A DNA stretch of 64,000 nucleotides. Source: a virus. Positions 50 to 18,317 of the stretch are shown here, one piece after another (the stretch's first letter is position 1; each line of letters opens with the position of its first letter). The notes under the pieces are model-generated. The model saw only the letters and a list, made by a program, of their open reading frames with translations. It had not been told where the DNA came from and made no database searches. The position numbers were made by a program, and so were the translations under genes. Where the stretch lies: IMG/VR virus record IMGVR_UViG_3300020187_000010. One strand, written 5' to 3'.

Positions 50-1348
50 TTATTGTACCTTTAGGTGTACCGCAGATAGCGGACTTTGTGATTTTGCTAT
101 ACGGAATAAATAATCCATGAACTGTTGTTCGCGACCTTGTATCATTATGAAAATAGAAGTCACATAATACTTTGAGACTAACCACTCGGTGGTAACACCT
201 TCTAGATTCTTTTTAAAGGTTTCTTTGTCTACTGGTCTATCGACTGCACCGTCATAGAATCCATAGAATTTGTCTAGGAATGCATCCCTATCTTTCTTGA
301 TGGACGACTCAAGATCCTTACGATTCTCGGTCTTATCACGAGTTGTTGCATATAGAGCCGCATCAATACCACCATGAGACACCTTACCGTGTTTAGCAGC
401 CTTACCGATAATCTCGCACTGGAAGGTAGGGAAGGTTCGGAACTGCATCTCAATACCACCGTCACCAAACAAGTAACCATCTTTGGACTTGAAGAAATCC
501 CTCTTACCATAAGATGACTTGGTGAACTTTGCACCTTTGAATGGTTTCTTATAGTTAACTTGGGCAAGTCTACCTTTACCAGTCAATTTCTTCAACGACA
601 CACCGATGATATCACGTGCAGCAAATGCTTTCATCAACTCGTTGTTCAGGTATTCCAGAGACTTTGCACCCTCTATATCATACTTGTTCTCTGCACCCTT
701 TGCGACCATGTAGATGTCCGCAGGAGACCATTTGTTGATATTACCGAATGCTTTCTGGACGCGATTCAGTTCTTTGAACTTCTTCTCTACTATCTCAACC
801 CAACCAGATCCTCGATGGAAACTGTATTGTTTTTTACCTAGAGCTTTGTGAAGAAGTCTTGCAATATCAATAGAAGAAGAGATCCACGACTCATCACCCA
901 GAAGAACTTCGTCTAGGGATGCATCGGTATGGGTTTTTGGATATGCGTTACGTATATCGTCCGCACTGAACTTAGTTGTCCGGTTATCCCAGACGGCTTG
1001 AAGATATACACATTGTGCAGATTCGGTTGCACGAGTATTGGCGGCACCACCACCAGAACCACGACCACCACCAAACTCGGTGGTCTTTGATAACTTACCG
1101 AAGGCAAGTTTGGTTCCGTCTAGTGTTTCTAAACCAATCGACTGTGCGAGTTTAGAGTTCTGTGAGAGGATTGCTTTCTCAATCTCTGCATTGTATTTGA
1201 ATACTACTTGGTCACCCGAAGTCAATTCAAAAGGTTCATTACCCTTATACTTACGTAAGAAGATATCAACACGAGCAGGTCTATCTTCTCGTGTCAATTC
1301 TCCGAAGGTCAGTGATGCCTCCGATAAAAAGGTTCCAAACCCTATCAT
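50..1348 (-). CDS. putative internal head protein with PD-(D/E)xK nuclease-like motifs
   Basis: N-terminus FGTFLSEA resembles T4 capsid-targeting/gp21 cleavage sequences; WSPADIY...GVSLKK motif; late promoter upstream. Confidence 0.5.
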   Translation of the reverse strand: MIGFGTFLSEASLTFGELTREDRPARVDIFLRKYKGNEPFELTSGDQVVFKYNAEIEKAILSQNSKLAQSIGLETLDGTKLAFGKLSKTTEFGGGRGSGGGAANTRATESAQCVYLQAVWDNRTTKFSADDIRNAYPKTHTDASLDEVLLGDESWISSSIDIARLLHKALGKKQYSFHRGSGWVEIVEKKFKELNRVQKAFGNINKWSPADIYMVAKGAENKYDIEGAKSLEYLNNELMKAFAARDIIGVSLKKLTGKGRLAQVNYKKPFKGAKFTKSSYGKRDFFKSKDGYLFGDGGIEMQFRTFPTFQCEIIGKAAKHGKVSHGGIDAALYATTRDKTENRKDLESSIKKDRDAFLDKFYGFYDGAVDRPVDKETFKKNLEGVTTEWLVSKYYVTSIFIMIQGREQQFMDYLFRIAKSQSPLSAVHLKVQ

Positions 1349-1388
1349 ATCTATTTCCTAAAAAGTGAATATAAACAAATTATAACAC

Positions 1389-1396
1389 TATTTATA
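1389..1396 (-). promoter_or_regulatory. T4-type late promoter TATAAATA
   Basis: Exact TATAAATA about 40 nt upstream of ORF 50-1348, overlapping the stop of the upstream gene. Confidence 0.75.
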
Positions 1397-2108
1397 CAAA
1401 AAGGGAAGTAGAATTTTCCTCATTATATTGTGCAATAGTGTCGATCAATGGACGAACCCAGTTGTCTCGATGTTCAATAAACACTTGAGGTTCATGTTGG
1501 TCTACTGAGATTATAGTAACCAACTGAGTGATAGGTTGACCAGTACGTTCTTCCCACATGATTGCATACGCAGCTTCTTGCATGAAGTAGTTCTTAATCC
1601 AGTCAAGACGTTTAGGTTTCATCGAAGTTTTGTAATCGATGATTGACGGTTTACCATCAAAGATACCCACGCAATCCACACGACCCGCAACACCCAAATG
1701 ATTAGAGTATAGTGGGGCTTCTTGTGCGAAGACCTTGGTCAAACGTTCATCCAGTATTGGTTTCAAATCAAGAAACGATTGGATGAGGTCAGGAGTACGC
1801 TTGGTCAACTTCATTTCCCCATTGTCGGGGTCGATTGCCATGTACTTGTCCCAATCAGGGTCATTGTTAACATACTTCTCACAGATTTCGTGAACCGAGG
1901 TACCACGCGTAGATGCACGATAAGAGACACGATTCGCCTCTGCCTCACCTACACGTTTACGCCACTTCGCAATACTGTCACGTGACAGAATCGAAAGGAC
2001 TGTAGTGATAGAGGGAAGGTTGATACCTTCGGGTGTCATATATTTGCGACCAGTATCAGTGGTCACGGCATTCATTTCAGTCAATTCGACCGGTACATGT
2101 TCAAACAT
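1392..2108 (-). CDS. PD-(D/E)xK exonuclease (Cas4/MGME1-like phage exonuclease)
   Basis: LPSITTVLS, RGTSVH, AGRVDC, IIDYKTS and QEAAYA motifs; start placed at MFEH (the ORF track starts at 2141). Confidence 0.85.
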   Translation of the reverse strand: MFEHVPVELTEMNAVTTDTGRKYMTPEGINLPSITTVLSILSRDSIAKWRKRVGEAEANRVSYRASTRGTSVHEICEKYVNNDPDWDKYMAIDPDNGEMKLTKRTPDLIQSFLDLKPILDERLTKVFAQEAPLYSNHLGVAGRVDCVGIFDGKPSIIDYKTSMKPKRLDWIKNYFMQEAAYAIMWEERTGQPITQLVTIISVDQHEPQVFIEHRDNWVRPLIDTIAQYNEENSTSLFV

Positions 2109-8986: not shown

Positions 8987-9166
8987 TTAAATAACTTTCA
9001 TCAACAGATTAACCGTCTTCAATATAGTAGCTTTGGTTTCCATATCACTTACAGCATCATCCATCTCAATCTCTAATCTGAGATCTTCTAATAGTTCACG
9101 TTTCTCATCGGTAGACAGTTCGTCTAACAATTGGATGTCTTTAATTCTTTGATCATAGTTTTCCAT
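8987..9166 (-). CDS. small acidic helical protein (59 aa, not in the ORF track)
   Basis: MENYDQRIKDIQLL...LLMKVI; TAATG overlap with the upstream lipoprotein gene. Confidence 0.6.
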   Translation of the reverse strand: MENYDQRIKDIQLLDELSTDEKRELLEDLRLEIEMDDAVSDMETKATILKTVNLLMKVI

Positions 9167-9531
9167 TAAAATCTCCCCATCATTGCTTTAGTCATTTTCT
9201 CGGACTGGTTTATTAATGTCTTCCTTTTTAAGTTGCAGTAGGTCTCTCCAAATACTCTTCCGGATAGTCCATCGAGACTCTTCTCGAAGATACTGACCAT
9301 CTCAAGGACATCTTTAGATCCCTTCCCAGTTGAATAAGTCTTTAACCATTGTTTGGATTGTACAATGTCATCGACCTGTAGTGGCGCTAGTTCAGATGAA
9401 CAATCTAAATTCTGAACTGATACCCAGACATCAACTACTGCCTTACTTTCATTATCATCATAAAAACTAGTGTTAGATATGGTTGAACATCCGGTTACCG
9501 CAAGGGCACCGATCAATAGTAGTGCTTTCAT
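9166..9531 (-). CDS. putative lipoprotein
   Basis: MKALLLIGALAVTG-C lipobox. Confidence 0.75.
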   Translation of the reverse strand: MKALLLIGALAVTGCSTISNTSFYDDNESKAVVDVWVSVQNLDCSSELAPLQVDDIVQSKQWLKTYSTGKGSKDVLEMVSIFEKSLDGLSGRVFGETYCNLKRKTLINQSEKMTKAMMGRF

Positions 9532-9725
9532 TTTGTGTTACGTCTCCTTTTTGTTGTTTCATAACTATGTATATATTTCCGTATGTCAGATAAAGAGAAA
9601 ATAAAGTATCCCAGTGTTGGGATGGTTGCCACTGCCCACCAACCCGCATCACCAAATTCGAGTCGTAAACTTACTGCGTGGAATAATATCGCGAAACTAA
9701 TCGCAAGAAGAATAAAGTGTTTCAT
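9528..9725 (-). CDS. small two-helix membrane protein
   Basis: Two hydrophobic segments and a basic tail. Confidence 0.6.
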   Translation of the reverse strand: MKHFILLAISFAILFHAVSLRLEFGDAGWWAVATIPTLGYFIFSLSDIRKYIHSYETTKRRRNTK

Positions 9726-10135
9726 TTCACCTCCATATCGAATGGGAAGAAGTCCAAGAAAAGATCACGTTCCATCTTGTATGCTTCCTTTTCCCAAGGT
9801 TGATTTTGGTATTCGTAATTGTCTGCCTTGCGACCTTTCCACTTCCAAGCACCTTCCGAGACCAGTTCATCACGTAAGAATTGTTTTGCATGAACCATCT
9901 CGTGGGCAAGTGCTTGCATCTGACGCATGAAGGTCTGGCCTTTGGTACCGATTTCAATTTCGGCATAGTCGTGGTCACCGAGACACAGACCTTGGGCATT
10001 TCCATCTAGTGTTCCTTTGAATCGGATAGTCAATAGACGTTGAAGACGATTGATCTGCAATGCACGACATAGGTTATCGATGTATTTTTCAACAACCGCT
10101 TTATTCTTATGACGACCTTCGATAAAAACATACAT
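9722..10135 (-). CDS. HExxH metallopeptidase-like protein
   Basis: LAHEMVHAKQ...PWEKEAY. Confidence 0.75.
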   Translation of the reverse strand: MYVFIEGRHKNKAVVEKYIDNLCRALQINRLQRLLTIRFKGTLDGNAQGLCLGDHDYAEIEIGTKGQTFMRQMQALAHEMVHAKQFLRDELVSEGAWKWKGRKADNYEYQNQPWEKEAYKMERDLFLDFFPFDMEVK

Positions 10136-10383
10136 TATTTAATCTCCTCGAAACCATTAGACTCTAAAATCGCACGAACACGTTCACGGTCAAGACTGTC
10201 ACCGTCACCCCAAGTAATACAATTCTCATGGTGGGCGACAATTGCTAGAGTAGCCATATATTCCATAATCGCAGACTGGATATCAGGGATACTACAACCA
10301 AGGTCGTAGATACCGTCCTTACCGTAGAACATATGGACATAATCACGAAAATCATTCAACTTAACTGGAAACATAACAAACAC
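10135..10383 (-). CDS. hypothetical early protein
   Basis: First ORF after an early cassette; FYG.DGIY...GDSLDRE.VR pattern. Confidence 0.65.
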   Translation of the reverse strand: MFVMFPVKLNDFRDYVHMFYGKDGIYDLGCSIPDIQSAIMEYMATLAIVAHHENCITWGDGDSLDRERVRAILESNGFEEIK

Positions 10384-10434
10384 CTCTCAACTCAATAGGG
10401 TACTATTATCTCATAATCATAACAAGTATGCAAG
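10383..10434 (-). promoter_or_regulatory. early promoter cassette, copy 3
   Basis: TTGCAT-17-GATAAT (TATGAGATAAT) followed by ATTGAGTTGAGAGG. Confidence 0.8.
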
Positions 10435-10456
10435 ACTTATTTCACTTATTTTTAGA

Positions 10457-10693
10457 TCATTTTGTTATATCAAGGTAGGTTCTTATCTCTTTTTTGGATA
10501 ACTTGCGGAACTTCCTGCGAGTCACAGCCCAAGTCTTCAGGGGTGTACTGAACTCGATTATCTCGGTCGTACCACGTTTGACATACCCTATCAACTGAGA
10601 ACCTCGGGTAATGTAGGTATGGTTCGTAATCTTGTGGTCACCCCAGTCAGTCAGCTCTTCTCTCCAGAGAGAGGTTAATAGTCGTTCACTCAT
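10457..10693 (-). CDS. hypothetical protein
   Basis: 78-aa ORF with a GGAG RBS. Confidence 0.65.
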   Translation of the reverse strand: MSERLLTSLWREELTDWGDHKITNHTYITRGSQLIGYVKRGTTEIIEFSTPLKTWAVTRRKFRKLSKKEIRTYLDITK

Positions 10694-10768
10694 TACTCAT
10701 TCTCCAAGGTTTAAAATTGGGACTGTCTTTTAGTGTGCACACGGCGCAGTCATTCCGTACTCCTATGA

Positions 10769-11059
10769 TTACCTACGCATATTGGCGTGGTCTTTCGCCT
10801 CTTGCGCATCAATGATGGGTACCGCATTAGACTTGTGCATTGTACTGATACCTTTGACCAACGTACCCGTGTAGATCATTTTTTCTTTCTTTTCGGTATT
10901 GCCAGTACCACTATCCAGAGATTTATAAACCGGAGTCTCACGTCTGTAAGGTTGTTCTGGTGTATAGTCTTTGAACTCATACTCACGTTTTTTGGTCGTC
11001 CATGCATTGTACTTCTTCTTACGTCCATTTGCATAGTGTCGCATACTACCGTGAATCAT
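10769..11059 (-). CDS. conserved basic phage protein
   Basis: Starts at MIHGSMRH; C-terminal YTGTLVKGISTMHKSNAVPI motif seen in T4-like phages. Confidence 0.7.
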   Translation of the reverse strand: MIHGSMRHYANGRKKKYNAWTTKKREYEFKDYTPEQPYRRETPVYKSLDSGTGNTEKKEKMIYTGTLVKGISTMHKSNAVPIIDAQEAKDHANMRR

Positions 11060-11060
11060 A
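11014..11060. repeat. 47-bp exact direct repeat, copy 1 (copy 2 at 11647-11693)
   Basis: tcttcttacgtccatttgcatagtgtcgcatactaccgtgaatcata present twice. Confidence 0.95.
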
Positions 11061-11210
11061 CTATAATTCCTTTTCCATACGTTGTCTGAGTTTTTGCAAT
11101 ATCGATATACTATGTGCAATTAACATTAGACGAGAACTTTCCGTGCACTCGGATGCTTGTTGTTGAAGTAACTCCAACTCCTCCTCAACCATATCAAAGG
11201 GGGTGATCAT
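11061..11210 (-). CDS. small helical protein (49 aa, not in the ORF track)
   Basis: MITPFDMVEEELELL...RMEKEL fills the gap between two genes. Confidence 0.55.
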   Translation of the reverse strand: MITPFDMVEEELELLQQQASECTESSRLMLIAHSISILQKLRQRMEKEL

Positions 11211-11428
11211 AAATTACCACCGTAGTAATCCAGTACCAGACTAAACGCTTCGATACGTGCATTCAGGTAAGCATCGAGATCAGCGTAAGGGTCATTATCA
11301 AATATAGACACACCGCGTTCCAGATCTTGTCCCAGATCTTTCTTGAAGGTTTCGATGTGACATTTCAACTCACCGATCATTATCGCGTCAATCTGTTCAG
11401 ACTCCATTTCAATCATTACTTTAGACAT
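11207..11428 (-). CDS. hypothetical protein, duplicate copy A'
   Basis: 73-aa close paralog of 11689-11910. Confidence 0.75.
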   Translation of the reverse strand: MSKVMIEMESEQIDAIMIGELKCHIETFKKDLGQDLERGVSIFDNDPYADLDAYLNARIEAFSLVLDYYGGNL

Positions 11429-11636
11429 ATTGTTCTCCATTAGATAAATTTTTAACATTAATGGTTTTCATTGTAGTACTATCAAGAAAGTGTCTGTCCA
11501 TAGGTTCAGGGCCAGTCGCAATACTGTAGTAGTCAACATTGTTATCGGTGAGGTTCTCATGAACAAACATTATCTCACCTGTGATTATGGAACGAGGGGT
11601 TTCCCATTGAATAGTCTCACCTACTTTACCGTACAT
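11421..11636 (-). CDS. hypothetical protein
   Basis: 71-aa ORF between the duplicated genes. Confidence 0.65.
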   Translation of the reverse strand: MYGKVGETIQWETPRSIITGEIMFVHENLTDNNVDYYSIATGPEPMDRHFLDSTTMKTINVKNLSNGEQYV

Positions 11637-11646
11637 TATACAGTCC

Positions 11647-11693
11647 TCTTCTTACGTCCATTTGCATAGTGTCGCATACTACCGTGAATCATA
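11647..11693. repeat. 47-bp exact direct repeat, copy 2
   Basis: Identical to 11014-11060. Confidence 0.95.
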
Positions 11694-11910
11694 AATTACC
11701 ACCGTAGTAATCCAGTACCAGACCAAACGCCTCGATGTATTCATTCAGGTAAACAACATCAGCCTTAGGGTCATTGTCAAATATAGACACACCCTCACCC
11801 TTTTCTCTACGCTCCAAATCTTTTCTGAAGGTGTCGATGTGCCATTTCAACTCACTGACCATTATCGCGTCAATCTGTTCGTTTTCCATTTCAAGCATTA
11901 CTTTAGACAT
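11689..11910 (-). CDS. hypothetical protein, duplicate copy A
   Basis: 73 aa, MSKVMLEMENEQIDAIM...LVLDYYGGNL. Confidence 0.75.
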   Translation of the reverse strand: MSKVMLEMENEQIDAIMVSELKWHIDTFRKDLERREKGEGVSIFDNDPKADVVYLNEYIEAFGLVLDYYGGNL

Positions 11911-11911
11911 T

Positions 11912-12049
11912 TTAGTTCTCCATCTCATTAATTTTTACAACAATCTCATTGTAGATTCTTTCGAACTCTTCTTCATTGAAACGTTCTTTAGTTTCACAAT
12001 GAACCATCAAGTCATTCCAGTGGTAAGTAATCTGTTCTTCTCTATTCAT
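11912..12049 (-). CDS. small acidic early protein (45 aa, not in the ORF track)
   Basis: MNREEQITYHWNDL...; first ORF after early cassette copy 4. Confidence 0.6.
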   Translation of the reverse strand: MNREEQITYHWNDLMVHCETKERFNEEEFERIYNEIVVKINEMEN

Positions 12050-12053
12050 AATA

Positions 12054-12105
12054 TCTCTCAACTCAATTAGGTAACCATTATCTCATAATAATAATAAGAA
12101 GTCAA
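12054..12105 (-). promoter_or_regulatory. early promoter cassette, copy 4
   Basis: TTGACT-17-GATAAT (TATGAGATAAT) followed by AATTGAGTTGAGAG. Confidence 0.8.
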
Positions 12106-12200
12106 CACTTATCAGCTGATTCTTTTAGACTTTTTTAACACTTTTATGGGGTTTGATATAACGGAAAGGTATAATCACCCTCCCCGACTGGATAAGGCTT

Positions 12201-12229
12201 AGTATACCACAGTAAGGGGAGGATGTCAA
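12201..12229 (-). promoter_or_regulatory. sigma70-type promoter embedded in an inverted repeat
   Basis: TTGACA-17-TATACT; CCTCCCC.ACTG / CAGT..GGGGAGG arms flank the -10 box. Confidence 0.7.
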
Positions 12230-12237
12230 GGGGGGGA

Positions 12238-12750
12238 TTAGTTATCGGACAGGGGGTTATCCAATGCCTTTTGAACTAGGTCTGTGAGACGTTCTTCGAG
12301 TTCTTTTAACTCGCGGTCGTTCTTGTCACGTAGACGGTTGAGTTGGGTGTCGTAGTTTTCTTGTAGTTGGTTGCGTTTATCTTCGAATCGATCATTTGCT
12401 TTATCGATCATGTCACGTACTTCAGTTTCGGTAATTCTTAGATTGTCCTCTACACGGTCTGCTTGTTTCTCGATAGAGATGATGTCGTCACGTAGACCAG
12501 ACTTGATATCACGGGTATATTCTATGGCTTCATCTAGTTTAGTCTCAATGACATCGTTACGTGCTGAGATAGCATCTACGTCAATGTTCTCTACGATCTC
12601 TTTCATACTGCGATAGTCATTGTAGAACTCAAATCCACCCCACGCAGCACCACCGAGTGTAGAGAGTGCGGTAATCAATGCGAACATCTTACCACCTTTG
12701 AAGGTCATCCCTCCAAATTCGATTTCCGTTTTGTCTTCTTCTTCTGACAT
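12238..12750 (-). CDS. membrane-anchored coiled-coil protein (late exported-protein operon, gene 6)
   Basis: N-terminal hydrophobic helix (MFALITALSTLGGAAWGGF) and a long heptad-like charged region. Confidence 0.75.
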   Translation of the reverse strand: MSEEEDKTEIEFGGMTFKGGKMFALITALSTLGGAAWGGFEFYNDYRSMKEIVENIDVDAISARNDVIETKLDEAIEYTRDIKSGLRDDIISIEKQADRVEDNLRITETEVRDMIDKANDRFEDKRNQLQENYDTQLNRLRDKNDRELKELEERLTDLVQKALDNPLSDN

Positions 12751-13196
12751 TATTTCTCATCACCCTCGAATTTCAGTTTTCTTAGATTCGCCAACTCTGC
12801 TTGTAACTTCTGGACTTCTAATCTTTTCTTAGTAAGTTCTAATTGGTATAATGTATTACAGTTGATTCTTTCTTTTGGTGCACCTATAGGTATGGTGATC
12901 TTGGCATATACACCAACATCTTTCATTTTACCACTACCATTATTGTATAGGTTACTGTCAATGCCCATCGTATTGAATGGATCATCTTGATTGATTATAC
13001 CGACAACACCGAACTCTACGTTAGTAGCAGAACCAATGGCGTTCCGGCAATCTATATCACCAGCCCTAATTTGATCTGAAGCATAATTAGATGGGGATTG
13101 AGGTAATGATAGATTCAAAGCACTAGAATCTCCATGAACCTGTCCCACACATAATATTGTCAAAATCACTATAAAATATCTCACTGCATCACTCAC
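12750..13196 (-). CDS. exported protein with amphipathic beta-strands, two Cys and a C-terminal coiled coil (gene 5)
   Basis: Signal peptide; NVEFGVVG and VGVYAKITIPIG strands; DCRN and INCN. Confidence 0.75.
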   Translation of the reverse strand: MSDAVRYFIVILTILCVGQVHGDSSALNLSLPQSPSNYASDQIRAGDIDCRNAIGSATNVEFGVVGIINQDDPFNTMGIDSNLYNNGSGKMKDVGVYAKITIPIGAPKERINCNTLYQLELTKKRLEVQKLQAELANLRKLKFEGDEK

Positions 13197-13570
13197 TATT
13201 TAAGTTTCGAACATATCCTCGATGATACCACCGTTACTCTTTCATCTTCTGCTATTATCTTAGATTTACTGCATATGTATTTGACAATTTTAGTATCACC
13301 AAATCTAACATACACTTCCACTTTTTGTTTCTTTAGATAGGGAACATTTAGTATTCGTTCGCCACCTACCGCAAACTTTACTGGATTCCAATCTTTATCA
13401 AACACGGATATTTCATACCAACCAACATCCTGCCTGCTGTTGAAGAGTTCCATATCAACTTTCATAATACCAGAGACATGAGATAACTTCAGTTTTGGGT
13501 ACGTGGGTGTCCATTGGTGGGCATTCGCATACCCACCGATAAGGACTAATAACATCATAATATAACGCAT
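13196..13570 (-). CDS. exported beta-rich protein, possibly pilus-chaperone-like (gene 4)
   Basis: Signal peptide ANA|HQWTP; alternating beta-strand pattern; two ICSK motifs. Confidence 0.55.
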   Translation of the reverse strand: MRYIMMLLVLIGGYANAHQWTPTYPKLKLSHVSGIMKVDMELFNSRQDVGWYEISVFDKDWNPVKFAVGGERILNVPYLKKQKVEVYVRFGDTKIVKYICSKSKIIAEDERVTVVSSRICSKLK

Positions 13571-13574
13571 GATA

Positions 13575-14075
13575 CTATTGCGCTATACACTCAGCACTGA
13601 CTGCGGCACGGTAGATACCGCCAGGAAATGATTTCCCATAACCATAGTCTGCTTGAGATTCTGATCTGAACCATATACTACCAGCAACAGTCAAATCATA
13701 TTCTGTAACATTGTTGTACAGTACTTTGGTGTTGTCGAAGTCATTCATCAACGTATCTGATACTTCAGCAATATCAACCAATCCTGTCCAATTCACAACA
13801 TCGTTCAAATACGGTGAAGTGGTAAACTCGATAGGATACGATAGAACCGCCTTGTAAGATCCAGCTTCAATGATATCGAATCGAACGATAGGTTCTACCC
13901 CACCATCTATCGACTTAGTACTAAGAATATTGCTAACAGGGTTACCAAAGACTCCGGGCGTGTCGGTAGTGATAACACACTTAGACTCCACGTTACCAGT
14001 AATTGGTACTTCTGTAAATGCCATAACGCCAGTCGAAGTTAATGCGACCGTGGCAAATAAAATTTGTTTAAACAT
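13575..14075 (-). CDS. exported pilin-like protein resembling the Csu/spore-coat-U type (gene 3)
   Basis: Signal peptide; VPITGNVESKCVI at the mature N-terminus; GGIYRAAVSAEC at the C-terminus. Confidence 0.55.
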   Translation of the reverse strand: MFKQILFATVALTSTGVMAFTEVPITGNVESKCVITTDTPGVFGNPVSNILSTKSIDGGVEPIVRFDIIEAGSYKAVLSYPIEFTTSPYLNDVVNWTGLVDIAEVSDTLMNDFDNTKVLYNNVTEYDLTVAGSIWFRSESQADYGYGKSFPGGIYRAAVSAECIAQ

Positions 14076-14091
14076 AACTATTTCCTATAGA

Positions 14092-14952
14092 TTAGTTGTT
14101 ATACTGACTATTTATCATTTTTTCATGTAATAATTGTTGAGCAAGTCCAACTCTTTTTCCTTTAGGATTAGTTGGTAACTTACCATCTTTTAATGTAATT
14201 GTTTCGTCATATGTTCCCCCAGATATATCTCTCATATATGCTGGCGGTATTAAACCAAGCGCAAGTAACTGATCATGCTTTAGTTGTGCATCAGCACTCA
14301 TTAACGCGGAGTTAACTGCACCCATTGCGATTTCTAAACGTTCCCTATTCTTTTGTATTGAAATCCTCCTTCTATCCTTTTCCTTTTGTTCCTCTTCATC
14401 AAGTTCTGCCTTTTTCTCAGCTTCCTCCTTGATAAATCTTTGTTCTTGTTCGTATATTGCAGTCAAGTCCGGTTCAGGAATATCGGGTATTGGTACAACA
14501 TAGCCAGGACAGTCAGGACTAGTCTGTGGATCGAAACATGGGTCGTACCTATAGTTGTAAACCACCCGTGCGTCTTCTACAGTACCTTCTCCAGTCCATT
14601 CGATAGAACCATCTCCCCAACGGTCTATCAGTATATTGTCTACCGGAACTATCTTATTAATAGTGTTCGATCTTCGTCCAGACCAATCATCCACTTCTCG
14701 AAAGATGTAACCGTCACCGCCAGCATCTTCGTTCTGGACATAGACGACCATATCATCTTCGGTATTCTTTATAGCAGTGTATCTGTACAACACACTGGAT
14801 ACTTCTAGTCCTGCCTGTTGAGGCAAGATGTTGCGCATCACCCAATTATAACCAAAGTCGGTTGCGTTCCTAGTTGTACCGGATATGACCTCAGAGTAAG
14901 AGTAAGAGGAGCAGAGCGCCAATACCACCACTAGCGGCAAGAGTCTTCTCAT
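14092..14952 (-). CDS. exported protein with beta domain, Cys/Pro linker and coiled coil (gene 2)
   Basis: Signal peptide SYS|EV; DPCFDPQTSPDCPGY; charged helix. Confidence 0.75.
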   Translation of the reverse strand: MRRLLPLVVVLALCSSYSYSEVISGTTRNATDFGYNWVMRNILPQQAGLEVSSVLYRYTAIKNTEDDMVVYVQNEDAGGDGYIFREVDDWSGRRSNTINKIVPVDNILIDRWGDGSIEWTGEGTVEDARVVYNYRYDPCFDPQTSPDCPGYVVPIPDIPEPDLTAIYEQEQRFIKEEAEKKAELDEEEQKEKDRRRISIQKNRERLEIAMGAVNSALMSADAQLKHDQLLALGLIPPAYMRDISGGTYDETITLKDGKLPTNPKGKRVGLAQQLLHEKMINSQYNN

Positions 14953-15466
14953 TTGTGGTCATCTCCTTTTCTTTATCTTTATCGCTTTTCACTTCGGGTG
15001 AACCACCTGCGGCAAGTTCTGCTTCCCACGCAAGTTTAGCTTCTTCGCCGATCATACCGTCATATGGGCAAGGTGTTCCTGCATTCATCATAGCGTCAAA
15101 AACCCGTCTATCTTGACACATCACTGATACTGCTGCAACTTTCATACCCATATCGTATAAAGTCTTAGCATTTTTTAATTTTTCGCAATTATAATCAGTG
15201 AACTGTGTACCCGCAGAGATACCAAGAATTTGTGTTTGTACTGCACCCGCAACACCGAATGTACATAGGTCAGAGTTTGACGTATTAATCGTGGGGGAAA
15301 TAGCAGAAGGGGGAGGCGACTTCAAAGTAGTTGTCGAATCAGATTTTGTGGTAACAGTACTATTAGTTGTAGAGTCTGTCTTTATAATGTCTTCGATAAC
15401 ACTTTCTTGAGCATATGCCGAAGAAGTTAAAATCACACCAACAAGTAGGGTATAAAGTAGTTTCAT
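14891..15466 (-). CDS. exported Cys-containing protein with a C-terminal hydrophobic tail (gene 1)
   Basis: Signal peptide AYA|QE; S/T-rich linker; SPPPSAISP...CEKLK...MGMKVAAVS.MCQD...GTPCP; ends SGGIGALLLLLL. Confidence 0.75.
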   Translation of the reverse strand: MKLLYTLLVGVILTSSAYAQESVIEDIIKTDSTTNSTVTTKSDSTTTLKSPPPSAISPTINTSNSDLCTFGVAGAVQTQILGISAGTQFTDYNCEKLKNAKTLYDMGMKVAAVSVMCQDRRVFDAMMNAGTPCPYDGMIGEEAKLAWEAELAAGGSPEVKSDKDKEKEMTTNEKTLAASGGIGALLLLLLL

Positions 15467-15500
15467 GAATAAATCCAAAAATAGTTATTATGTACGATTC

Positions 15501-15508
15501 TATTTATA
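15501..15508 (-). promoter_or_regulatory. T4-type late promoter TATAAATA
   Basis: Exact motif about 35 nt upstream of the six-gene operon. Confidence 0.75.
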
Positions 15509-15579: not shown

Positions 15580-16260
15580 TTAGGTCGCGATCAACCCTTT
15601 GTTTACTAGTCGTTTATAGTTATTCATCTTAGTGTCTTTGGGGCCACTAGGTTTTATCTTTGTCCTTATATGTATGAAGTTTGCACGTTCAACATCTGGT
15701 TCAAACGAAGAATAGTTCCACATTTGTCCATCAAGGTAGTTGCCTTTCTGTGTGTGGGACATTCCCAGTTTAAGTGCGAGAGTGTGCATGACACCTTCAT
15801 CAACCCAGTTCTGTTTATACCGTAACACGATATCGTCAGTCAATACACTACGGAACTTCTTACGTTGTTCCTTGGTCAGTTTGTATATAGATCCACCCCA
15901 GTAAGGTGCACCTTCATTACCCCATACGAAACCGAGTGTTCTTGCAATACCCGAACGCAGATTGGTTTGGATTTGAGTATGTCTACCTATGCCTTTACAC
16001 TCAAATATGTTTTCATTACAACCCTTACGAACAAACATATCGGCATCAACCATAACAACATTGTCATAGTCATCCCATCGTTTGTCCAACATAACAAGTT
16101 TCTGTAGTTCGGGTCTCACATCCATAGAAGTGAATTGGTCACCTCTTACAAGTTCATAGTCCGCACCGACCATCTCAGCGTACTCAGAGATACTCTTAGA
16201 TGATAGTTTAGTCAGTTCGTTGAGTTCACCCGACCAGTGTTGTAGTATAATATTTTTCAT
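15580..16260 (-). CDS. GT-A fold glycosyltransferase-like protein
   Basis: EYAE.VGADY, K...L...YD.V.MVDADMF (DxD), WN, FIH; paralog of 32170-32983. Confidence 0.7.
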   Translation of the reverse strand: MKNIILQHWSGELNELTKLSSKSISEYAEMVGADYELVRGDQFTSMDVRPELQKLVMLDKRWDDYDNVVMVDADMFVRKGCNENIFECKGIGRHTQIQTNLRSGIARTLGFVWGNEGAPYWGGSIYKLTKEQRKKFRSVLTDDIVLRYKQNWVDEGVMHTLALKLGMSHTQKGNYLDGQMWNYSSFEPDVERANFIHIRTKIKPSGPKDTKMNNYKRLVNKGLIAT

Positions 16261-17018
16261 GAGAACTCTTTTACAAATATATCATATAGGTATTGTGACC
16301 ACGCTTCATGAGCGGGTTCGTTGGGATGTCCAAACTCTAATATTTCGAAGTCATTCTCGGCAAAAGTATAAAAGTCGATATACCTACCAAGTCCAAGTCT
16401 ACTGGTATCTTTCAAACTACTAAGTGATTTGTGGGTATACTCTATCCATTCAGTCCAAGGAGAATCGGTTCTTTTGAATCTTGGATGTGTTGACAATAAA
16501 ATATTCGACCAACACCTTTTGTGGAAAGAACCCTGTATTAATTTGATACCCATACTATCACATATCAATTCCATACTTTTCATGAAACTTAGATGATGTG
16601 TTATTTTAGTACGAAGAACATCCATCTTTTCTAATGCGGGGGACAATAGTTGTTCTAGTTCAGGTTTAATATGGTGCATCCTAGCAGGAGAGAATTGCGA
16701 CATACATTGGAACCGTTGGATACCAACCTCTCTTTCCCATCCAGATACTCTATTTTCTGCAGCCTCGTCTCTCTGCCACGCAGACCAAAGAATTACCATA
16801 TGAGTAGGATTTTCTTTAGTCGGATCTAAAAGATAGTCTATAGTGTCTCGAAATATTTTATCATTACACGCACCACAAGTAGCGAGATTCACATATTCTG
16901 TTTTTAATTTTTTAGATAAATGATGGGTGAATGTTAAATGGTAATGTTCTGGCGGACTCTTATCATATCCCTGCAACTCATCACCCCATACGAAACTGCA
17001 ACCATTAGTTAGTAACAT
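16257..17018 (-). CDS. SGNH/GDSL-like hydrolase (paralog 1)
   Basis: NGCSFVWGDEL, NLA..GACN..IFR, GHPNEPAH. Confidence 0.75.
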   Translation of the reverse strand: MLLTNGCSFVWGDELQGYDKSPPEHYHLTFTHHLSKKLKTEYVNLATCGACNDKIFRDTIDYLLDPTKENPTHMVILWSAWQRDEAAENRVSGWEREVGIQRFQCMSQFSPARMHHIKPELEQLLSPALEKMDVLRTKITHHLSFMKSMELICDSMGIKLIQGSFHKRCWSNILLSTHPRFKRTDSPWTEWIEYTHKSLSSLKDTSRLGLGRYIDFYTFAENDFEILEFGHPNEPAHEAWSQYLYDIFVKEFS

Positions 17019-17809
17019 GGTAACATTTCTGCCGCAGTAATTATATGAGCAATAAGTTTAGCGTATTCCGTATGGGTATCTTCATCAGCATGACCCATGG
17101 GTTTTAACGTGTAACTTTTCTCAGCCAAGGTATAAAGGTCTGTATAATTACCCAAACCCATTCTACATTCAGGACGCAAGTCTTTAAGGATTTTTTTAAC
17201 TTCTTTCTTATAATCTTCGAAACCATCCATTTTGAGAGTGGATAATATATTTTTATACATGTCACCGTGGATTACGCCCTGTATGATAGGGATCATCATC
17301 ATCTCACAAATAAACTGCATCTGTTGCATACATTTCAAACCATATAATATTTGAGTCTGCATGGTAAGAACATCTTCAGTATATGCTTTGAGAATTTCCT
17401 TTCTGTTTTTATTAGTACTATCACCCCATTCTAATTCAAAGGATGTACTCTTGTGTGAAGGTATTATCTGGTTCATGTTACATTCTTGAGGGATATGTAT
17501 ATCTTTATCCGCAAGAAAATGTTCAGACTCACACAGCTCAAACCTTCCCCAATTACTCCACATTATAACAACCATATCAACATGGTCAGATGGACGCATT
17601 AGAAAGTCGAGTGTTCTACGGTAAATCTTCGCGTTTGAAGAACCGTTCTCTGCAAGGTTCACATAAGGGAGATGCAATCTCTCTGATAATTTGTGTGTGT
17701 ATGTGTGACGATGGTGGGTGTCGATCCCATTCGGAGATCGACTTCCCTCTAGTTCATCGCCATAGGTGAACGAGTCACCATTAGTCAGTAGTATTCCCAT
17801 TATTCCCAT
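17009..17809 (-). CDS. SGNH/GDSL-like hydrolase (paralog 2)
   Basis: NGDSFTYGDEL, NLA.NGSSN..IYR, GHADEDTH; start codon uncertain. Confidence 0.75.
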   Translation of the reverse strand: MGIMGILLTNGDSFTYGDELEGSRSPNGIDTHHRHTYTHKLSERLHLPYVNLAENGSSNAKIYRRTLDFLMRPSDHVDMVVIMWSNWGRFELCESEHFLADKDIHIPQECNMNQIIPSHKSTSFELEWGDSTNKNRKEILKAYTEDVLTMQTQILYGLKCMQQMQFICEMMMIPIIQGVIHGDMYKNILSTLKMDGFEDYKKEVKKILKDLRPECRMGLGNYTDLYTLAEKSYTLKPMGHADEDTHTEYAKLIAHIITAAEMLPCY

Positions 17810-18317
17810 GAATCCTATCGTGTTCAAACAACTTCAGAAAACCATAATGAATTGTTTTCATAATGTCTTTACGCCAGTCAGCAGGGTTCTCTCCCTTGTT
17901 GCCATATCGACCATTATACTTGTCAATATTACCAGCAAAGAATCCCATACCATGACCACGATCAACGATGACTTCAGATGATTGAAGACCCCCTTGACCA
18001 TAGTGACCACTGTAAGTAGTATCTATATATTTCCTAAACTCTTCGATCAGTTCTCTTTCACGGAACTTGTAATCAATATCATCCGTATACTCATTCCAAG
18101 TAGTGAACTCATTCCAAGTATTGGTCGAATTATCTAGATAATTTGAGGTCAAATTATCTTGCCAGTAAAGTGCATCTCCATTGTAAGAAATGTCTGCATC
18201 AGTAATCGTGCGGCTGCGCAGTGCGTTTGCATGTGCCTGATCCCATTCTTCGGGAGTTGCGTCATTCAGACTACGACCACCTACAGTAACGTCACCATAA
18301 TATTCAGAACCCGCCAT
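17781..18317 (-). CDS. DUF3310-like protein (nucleotide kinase/SaV-like) with an N-terminal extension
   Basis: YIDTTYSGHY...GF.AGNI.KY..RYG.KG...D..K.IHY. Confidence 0.6.
   Translation of the reverse strand: MAGSEYYGDVTVGGRSLNDATPEEWDQAHANALRSRTITDADISYNGDALYWQDNLTSNYLDNSTNTWNEFTTWNEYTDDIDYKFRERELIEEFRKYIDTTYSGHYGQGGLQSSEVIVDRGHGMGFFAGNIDKYNGRYGNKGENPADWRKDIMKTIHYGFLKLFEHDRIHGNNGNTTD

Follow-up and report, generated by a model that had tools for sequence, protein, structure and literature searches.

Organization and Conservation of the Cassette

The DNA analyzed here, a window of 64,000 nucleotides from IMG/VR virus record IMGVR_UViG_3300020187_000010, carries on its minus strand (12238-15466) a cassette of six tightly packed open reading frames (ORFs), arranged head to tail and designated g1 to g6 (table 1). 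The spacing between successive genes is -62, 16, 4, -1, and -1 nt, the first value being a 62-nt overlap between g1 and g2 that is absent from a preliminary description of the locus. The cassette is preceded by TATAAATA, a T4-type late promoter box present in eight copies in the window, all on the coding strand, where 4.05 copies are expected on both strands together. The exact octamer also lies no more than 160 nt upstream of g1, mostly at 29-52 nt, in 28 of 53 distinct related loci. The operon ends with g6, which is directly followed by a strong sigma70-like promoter, and no terminator-like site was found at this end. The phage is an uncultured marine T4-like myophage; products encoded in the window are a T4-type DNA polymerase, a DnaB-like helicase, an SbcC-like nuclease subunit, a portal protein, a tail sheath, and a large terminase subunit, and the cassette is located outside the structural gene block. 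Across the cassette, the nearest relative record, an IMG/VR contig of 92 kb, is 96% identical.

In 92 related viral or metagenomic loci, the genes are syntenic and the order g1 to g6 is kept wherever the contig reaches, at 30-70% identity, with variable flanking genes, a conservation that is not due to chance. The preliminary description had proposed that one late promoter serves six tightly packed genes and that a lytic myophage uses them as a late operon for exported proteins, and had named conservation of the operon as a check; the promoter, the gene content, and the 92 loci agree with it, and the phage is T4-like. We conclude that the cassette is a late-transcribed operon that would put a multiprotein complex into the envelope of the infected Gram-negative host.

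Relatives of the individual products are numerous, with 480 of similar length for g3, 1257 for g2, and at least 5317 for g5, none of them named, and relatives of g3 occur in at least 530 IMG/VR stretches. Searches of cultured phages for near and distant DNA and for the g3 protein yielded nothing beyond a short match of the g1 domain to Pelagibacter phages, and a protein search of cultured phages with g4 returned no match. Matches in genome collections are confined to short contigs of metagenome-assembled genomes (MAGs) from unrelated phyla, which are most likely mis-binned phage DNA; contigs L093-L100 carry the cassette and are binned as Melainabacteria, Bathyarchaeia, Aquiluna, Saprospiraceae, Pseudomonadales, and Rhodobacteraceae, and one Rhodobacteraceae MAG contains four different g5 copies. 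Profiles of g5 found nothing in the 400 genomes scored out of 401 sampled from the class of a Pseudomonadales MAG (one proteobacterial class). The literature searched for PapD-like or fimbrial-chaperone genes that phages encode in their lysis cassettes contained no description of this block. Among the uncharacterized gene blocks of aquatic T4-like phages it is one of the commoner, and every member is annotated as hypothetical.

Table 1. Features of the cassette, its surroundings in the window, and a related lysis locus
Feature	Sequence	Coordinates	Strand	Description
T4-type late promoter box	window	15501-15508	minus	TATAAATA, 35 nt upstream of the g1 ATG
g1	window	14891-15466	minus	191 aa from ATG; module A
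g2	window	14092-14952	minus	286 aa; module A
g3	window	13575-14075	minus	166 aa; pilin-like subunit, module B
g4	window	13196-13570	minus	124 aa; single PapD-like Ig domain ("half chaperone"), module B
g5	window	12750-13196	minus	148 aa, GTG start; third member of module B
g6	window	12238-12750	minus	170 aa; module A
Lipoprotein gene	window	9166-9531	minus	121 aa with a lipobox that ends at Cys15; probably a displaced module A member
Acidic protein gene	window	8987-9166	minus	59 aa, adjoins the lipoprotein gene; assigned by position and composition only
Compact lysis cassette with pilin-like and g4-like genes	L101 (ENA metagenome contig)	100-1572		
Small-gene block	window	9531-12238		2.7 kb, about 10 small genes
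Strong sigma70-like promoter	window	12201-12229		directly after g6
Strong sigma70-like promoter	window	12077-12105		within the small-gene block
65-aa ORF	window	9528-9725		two hydrophobic segments; overlaps the start of the lipoprotein gene
Paralogous gene pair	window	16257-17827		253 and 272 aa, adjacent, just upstream of the cassette

Exported Products of the Cassette

The products of g1 to g5 each begin with a hydrophobic core followed by small-residue cleavage sites, and each is predicted by a rule-based check (not SignalP) to carry a cleavable signal peptide whose cleavage position is conserved across divergent relatives. The mature chains contain four Cys residues in g1 and two each in g2, g3, g4, and g5, all invariant in the alignments, and none in g6, which has a short conserved cytoplasmic N-terminus, a single transmembrane segment (hydrophobic residues ~22-45), and a long coiled-coil-like remainder. 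These features are those of the preliminary description, which had listed five signal peptides with paired Cys residues and a sixth protein with a membrane anchor and a coiled coil; the sequence motifs that it quoted from g3 and g5 are present and conserved.

The g1 product is composed of the signal peptide, a Ser/Thr-rich stretch, a nearly invariant four-Cys domain (55 invariant columns in an alignment of 40 sequences), a charged linker, and a C-terminal hydrophobic anchor, the last being an addition to the earlier account. It belongs to phrog_20531, a PHROGs family of unknown function, and its family is 99-100% viral in the protein atlas. The g2 product has a beta-rich N-terminal domain with a Cys pair after its signal peptide, a Pro-rich and acidic linker, and a conserved C-terminal domain. 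In g5 the signal peptide is followed by two amphipathic beta-strands, joined by a hypervariable loop and with an invariant Cys on either side of the strand pair, and by a C-terminal coiled coil; g5 is a candidate oligomeric membrane partner. Two spanin assignments were considered and rejected: g5 as a lipoprotein o-spanin, given that the Cys in its signal peptide is not conserved, and g1 as a unimolecular spanin, given that it contains no lipobox.

None of the six proteins reaches the cut-off of any Pfam or NCBIfam family. Matches below threshold are weak, and those of the coiled-coil part of g6 are to coiled-coil families only. PHROGs places g1, g4, and g5 in families of unknown function and gives nothing else for the six, the protein atlas places g1 and g2 in unnamed viral clusters only, and profile searches of PDB sequences with the g1 to g5 alignments returned nothing meaningful.

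The g4 Product Resembles the N-terminal Domain of PapD-like Chaperones

The structural model of g4 (predicted local distance difference test score, pLDDT, of 89.6) is a single beta domain. Its best Foldseek match is DraB (E = 2.6e-4), followed by Caf1M, SafB, PapD, FaeE, FimC, and CsuC; the top of the list consists mostly of chaperones of chaperone-usher systems (E of 2.6e-4 to 4e-3, TMq of 0.55-0.65). An independent all-against-representatives structure search (VIA) gave FimC (Z = 10.7; 98 residues at 2.6 Å), SafB (10.6), YadV (10.1), CfaA (9.9), PapD (9.7), FaeE (9.5), and CsuC (9.0), with alignments that cover residues 1 to ~120 of the chaperone chains, that is, the N-terminal domain. MSP domains, which belong to the same superfamily, score comparably to the chaperones (Z of 9.2-9.7), and further down the list are the AmoB cupredoxin domain and a Cu(I) chaperone (Z of 7.5-7.8). 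The earlier proposal that g4 is chaperone-like is thus upheld by the model, and we assign g4 as a PapD-like N-terminal chaperone domain at the level of the predicted fold only. By sequence, g4 has no Pfam or NCBIfam match to the PapD chaperone families (PF00345 with PF02753), a profile search of PDB sequences with g4 retrieved no chaperone, and hhalign against FimC gave a probability of 0.1%. The second, C-terminal Ig domain of these chaperones is absent, the mature protein being a single domain of ~107 residues, and relatives of g4 are 122-147 aa long.

The predicted cleavage of the g4 signal peptide always falls directly before an invariant His (first mature codon at 13519-13521), which is kept in every relative seen, including very distant ones (L101, L104, and L108-L111). 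PapD-like chaperones are not known to have a His directly after the cleavage site, and this residue may mark a metal site or a special role in strand donation. The last two strands of g4 contain its invariant Cys pair, and an invariant Arg and a nearly invariant Lys are found near the C-terminal strand.

The g3 Product Is an Ig-like Protein with Pilin-like Termini

The product of g3 is composed of a signal peptide and a mature chain of ~147 residues, in which a conserved N-terminal extension precedes an Ig-like beta-sandwich with an invariant Cys in both its first and its last strand. In the model (pLDDT of 87) the sandwich spans residues 30-166, and residues 20-32 have low confidence; the extension, although conserved, is unfolded in the monomer, with an alternating hydrophobic pattern and an invariant Gly ahead of the first Cys. 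An alternating G-x-Y pattern marks the C-terminal strand. These terminal features are conserved in 45 relatives and align with the termini of mature FimA, FimF, and FimG of Escherichia coli K-12 (NC_000913.3); the Gly is not kept in remote pilin-like partners.

Whether g3 is a pilin, as had been proposed, receives a divided answer. In addition to the Fim-like termini, Foldseek lists CfaB, the PapG pilin domain, FimF/G, HdaB, CsuA/B, and Caf1 (E of 3e-3 to 5e-2, TM of 0.3-0.5), and the donor-strand polymer CanA is also among the structural matches. However, ranking by Z score describes a generic fold, with Ig domains of MSCRAMMs, integrins, and Gram-positive pilins as the best matches (Z of 6-7, maximum 7.0) and no chaperone-usher pilin among the 50 best. 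Neither g3 (E up to 1) nor ten of its close and remote relatives (E up to 0.1) matches the Pfam families Fimbrial (PF00419) or SCPU/Csu (PF05229), in hhalign the g3 alignment reached probabilities of at most 1.3% with E. coli FimA, FimI, FimF, and FimG, and an exhaustive profile search yielded 109 representatives, none of the ten scanned reaching a Pfam cut-off. Membership in the Csu/spore-coat-U type, which the preliminary description had singled out for comparison, was not found. We regard g3 as a generic Ig-like sandwich with pilin-like termini and a weak link to pilins.

Two Separable Modules

The cassette consists of two separable modules, module A (g1, g2, and g6) and module B (g3, g4, and g5). 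Members of module A are encoded by the Pelagibacter podophage HTVC115P, in which homologues of g1 (gp54, E = 2e-43) and g6 (gp49, E = 2e-22) enclose a g2-like protein; gp53 is weakly similar to the g2 C-terminus (E = 0.32). The g1 domain is also found in the pelagimyophage Mosig (Mosig_00202). Module B occurs alone, in the order g4-like, g5-like, and pilin-like, in Vibrio phages D479 and 2.275.O, Klebsiella phage Eowyn, and Erwinia phage pEp_SNUABM_01, and in D479 it follows rIIA and rIIB. The hallmarks of the trio are kept in these cultured phages, namely the N-terminal His of g4, the Cys pairs, the hairpin and coiled coil, and the Cys residues in the first and last strands of the pilin-like protein. 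A divergent cassette in locus L104 has the order g1-g2-x-g6-g3-g4-g5.

Two further genes accompany module A in relatives. A homologue of the lipoprotein encoded in the window is present in 21 of the 92 loci, directly 3' of g6 in several (e.g., L031, L037, L039, and L083), where it is paired with an acidic protein (e.g., L037, L031, and L083). In the window, the corresponding pair (8987-9531) lies 2.7 kb from g6, across small genes with sigma70-like promoters. The window lipoprotein is 38.8% identical to that of L037 (E = 9e-21); a tblastn search of the window with the acidic protein of relatives gave no match.

Several neighboring genes were observed in addition. The intervening block has two strong sigma70-like promoters and contains paralogous genes of 79 and 83 aa; it looks like a set of early-type genes inserted into an ancestral eight-gene cassette. 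The 65-aa ORF at the start of the lipoprotein gene encodes a small membrane protein that might be holin-like. The paralogues just upstream of the cassette have weak DUF6071 matches, and their homologues flank the cassette in 24 related loci. A conserved, very basic protein of 45 aa is encoded just upstream of the g6-type gene in some T4-like cassettes (L075 7019-7153, L085, and L064) and in the Pelagibacter podophage (L012 1697-1834; HTVC115P gp50).

Gene Neighborhoods and Lysis

In one metagenomic lineage, represented by two near-identical contigs (L101 and L102), remote g3-like and g4-like genes are located downstream of a Phage_lysozyme gene. The lysozyme gene and this pair are separated by a gene encoding a transmembrane segment and a coiled coil, in which a Pro-rich ORF with a lipobox is embedded, an arrangement that is Rz/Rz1-like; starts and stops of the lysis genes and the pair overlap, leaving no gaps. 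In Mosig the g1-like gene follows a GTA_holin_3TM gene. In relatives of the cassette, g6 can be followed by a GTA_holin_3TM gene (L100) or by a gene for a SleB-type cell-wall hydrolase (L074), and Peptidase_C93 or Lipase_3 genes can be inserted between g5 and g6. The accessory genes recorded in relatives (L026 7487-7900, L087 2878-3339, L075 6022-6741, L074 8531-9082, and L100 7065-7466) encode a Peptidase_C93 (transglutaminase-like Cys peptidase), a class 3 lipase, a SleB-type hydrolase, and a GTA-type holin with three transmembrane segments. A tail-anchored protein of 153 aa encoded before g6 in 14 loci appeared holin-like by eye; it has no Pfam match and no BLAST similarity to GTA-type holins, and we therefore did not count it as a lysis gene.

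The neighbors of relatives thus point to lysis as much as to an appendage, which is suggestive and not strong. Together with the separability of the modules, this departs from the preliminary description, which had treated the block as a single operon for a possible surface appendage.

Interpretation of the Cassette

We tentatively favor the reading that the late complex encoded by the cassette acts on the envelope at about the time of lysis or egress and is not a classical pilus. Module B would be an usher-less derivative of the chaperone-subunit principle, in which g4 most likely binds the Ig-like g3 in the periplasm by beta-strand complementation and g5 most likely oligomerizes as a membrane-proximal partner that receives or anchors g3. 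Module A would form an inner-membrane-anchored scaffold across the periplasm, with g6 anchored at its N-terminus and contributing its coiled coil and g1 anchored at its C-terminus; in relatives it would also include the outer-membrane lipoprotein and the acidic protein. In marine T4-like phages, module B would be coupled to this inner-membrane coiled-coil set, and the complex may help to breach or reorganize the outer layers at lysis or may condition the lysing cell for virion release.

Several observations weigh against this reading. Pfam-supported hydrolase, holin, or lipase genes are found in the ~6-kb flanks of only ~17 of the 92 loci, no lysis gene adjoins the cassette in the window, and the sole Phage_lysozyme match in the closest relative is ~35 kb from the cassette. 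Lysis genes are scattered in T4-type phages, so that distance alone says little. The trio of D479, Eowyn, 2.275.O, and pEp_SNUABM_01 is not beside annotated lysis genes, and L101 already has Rz/Rz1-like genes; the trio is therefore not a spanin substitute there. No member of the cassette matches a lysis, spanin, fimbrial, or chaperone family by sequence, g4 has one chaperone domain instead of two, and the fold of g3 is generic.

Next in probability, and doubtful, is a surface fiber or capsule-like polymer, in which g3, once released from g4, would polymerize by donor-strand exchange and pass the outer membrane by way of a g5 oligomer standing in for the usher. Module A would anchor or energize the process, and the fiber would aggregate cells ("sibling capture") or coat them. 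The fold of g4 comes nearest to that of FGL chaperones, which assemble thin polymers, both ends of g3 look like those of Fim subunits, its extension is the conserved yet unstructured segment described above, and its Foldseek list includes CfaB, FimF/G, Caf1, CsuA/B, and CanA. The amphipathic hairpin, variable loop, and coiled coil of g5 are what would be expected of an oligomeric barrel, and the curli and type VIII secretion genes of pelagiphages (PMC7029224, PMC9599517) are a precedent for secretion and fiber operons among marine phages. Against a fiber stand the lack of an usher and of a second chaperone domain, the generic fold of g3 with chaperone-usher pilins outside its 50 best matches by Z score, and the lack of sequence matches to fimbrial families, and late expression in a lytic phage would leave an appendage little time to matter. 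We consider it unlikely that the cassette is an usher-independent donor-strand system in which the one-domain g4 hands g3 to an oligomeric g5 pore or anchor, so that the dying cell acquires a polymer or surface layer. As a mobile unit, the trio would then have reached marine T4-like, jumbo, Vequintavirinae, and other phages, and in the T4-like marine phages it would be docked to an inner-membrane coiled-coil scaffold.

Receptor masking or exclusion is less probable again. Late in infection, the exported proteins would bind or cover host receptors and spare progeny from being lost on debris or on infected cells, in the manner of T5 Llp. All products are predicted to reside in the envelope, a lipoprotein accompanies the cassette in relatives, the g1/g2/g6 set of HTVC115P follows fiber-type genes (a glycine-rich domain protein and one like a tail-fiber assembly chaperone), and in unrelated phages the trio has the character of a mobile accessory module. 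However, the products have no similarity to known exclusion proteins, and the near-invariance of g1 across Pelagibacter and T4-like phages is more in keeping with a universal target in the envelope than with a specific receptor.

It is very improbable that the cassette is a periplasmic metal or redox module, in which g4 would be an Ig/cupredoxin-like protein that binds copper or another metal through its N-terminal His and resembles chaperones through a shared fold. The invariance of the His that directly follows the signal-peptidase site, in close and remote relatives, and the lower-ranked cupredoxin and Cu(I) chaperone matches are consistent with such a role, but PapD-like chaperones and MSP domains rank clearly higher (Z of 9-10.7, and in Foldseek), only one His is invariant, and g3, g5, and module A would be left with no role. 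That these are virion or cytoplasmic proteins whose N-termini merely resemble signal peptides is scarcely credible, even with late expression and related genes beside tail-fiber genes in some phages, given five consecutive canonical signal peptides with conserved cleavage positions, the invariant first mature residue of g4, invariant Cys pairs that fit an oxidizing compartment, and the position of the cassette outside the structural gene block.

Should the chaperone-subunit reading be correct, donor-strand complementation would need no usher and only half a chaperone, and it would be used by lytic phages within the host envelope during the final minutes of infection. This is relevant to the way in which marine phages lyse or condition cells without recognizable spanins and to the minimal requirements of the chaperone-usher mechanism. 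Because cultured phages of Vibrio, Klebsiella, and Erwinia carry the trio, the question is open to bench experiments.

Comparison with Known Systems

The cassette is similar to chaperone-usher systems (Caf1M-Caf1, SafB-SafA, and DraB, and FimC with FimA/F/G) in the predicted fold of g4, which is that of the chaperone N-terminal domain, and in g3, a Sec-exported Ig-like protein whose termini follow the patterns of Fim subunits. The genes for g3 and g4 are adjacent and always occur together. FGL chaperones have a disulfide in their last two strands, and the position of the g4 Cys pair recalls it. In contrast to these systems, the cassette has no usher: such a protein has ~800 aa, the largest cassette product has 286 aa, and no usher-sized ORF is present in the cassette, as the preliminary description had noted for a canonical usher, or in the related loci examined. 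Further differences are the missing second chaperone domain, the lack of membership at the sequence level, the Cys pair of g3 that joins its first and last strands, the invariant N-terminal His of g4, and an obligatory third partner, g5, with no counterpart in chaperone-usher operons. Finally, the cassette is encoded by lytic phages and expressed late.

The likeness to two-component spanins (lambda Rz/Rz1 and T4 PseT.3/PseT.2) lies at the level of architecture only, g6 being a type II membrane protein with a periplasmic coiled coil. In some relatives an outer-membrane lipoprotein follows g6, as in separated i-spanin/o-spanin pairs, expression is late, and relatives of the cassette are found beside holin, endolysin, cell-wall hydrolase, and Rz/Rz1-like genes. 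The cassette differs from spanins in that its proteins have no sequence similarity to them, the block includes four or five more exported proteins, and the lipoprotein is larger than typical o-spanins, is not Pro-rich, and does not adjoin g6 in the window. In addition, the trio coexists with canonical Rz/Rz1-like genes in L101, and the lysozyme gene is far from the cassette in the lineage of the window.

T5 Llp and similar proteins are small exported proteins or lipoproteins that a lytic phage places on the host envelope, as the cassette products would be. Those are single proteins with known receptor targets, and they have no similarity to the cassette.

Pelagiphages carry curli/type VIII secretion operons (PMC7029224, PMC9599517), which differ from the cassette in that CsgG and CsgF are recognizable in them, whereas the six cassette proteins have no Pfam match to CsgG, CsgF, or CsgE; likewise, no CsgG was found in the nearest relative record, which is 54% complete. 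The cassette combines a PapD-like domain with an Ig-like partner and is not an amyloid system. The two are alike in being Sec-exported envelope operons of abundant marine myo- and podophages that are transferred in modular fashion between phage families (PMC7029224, PMC9599517).

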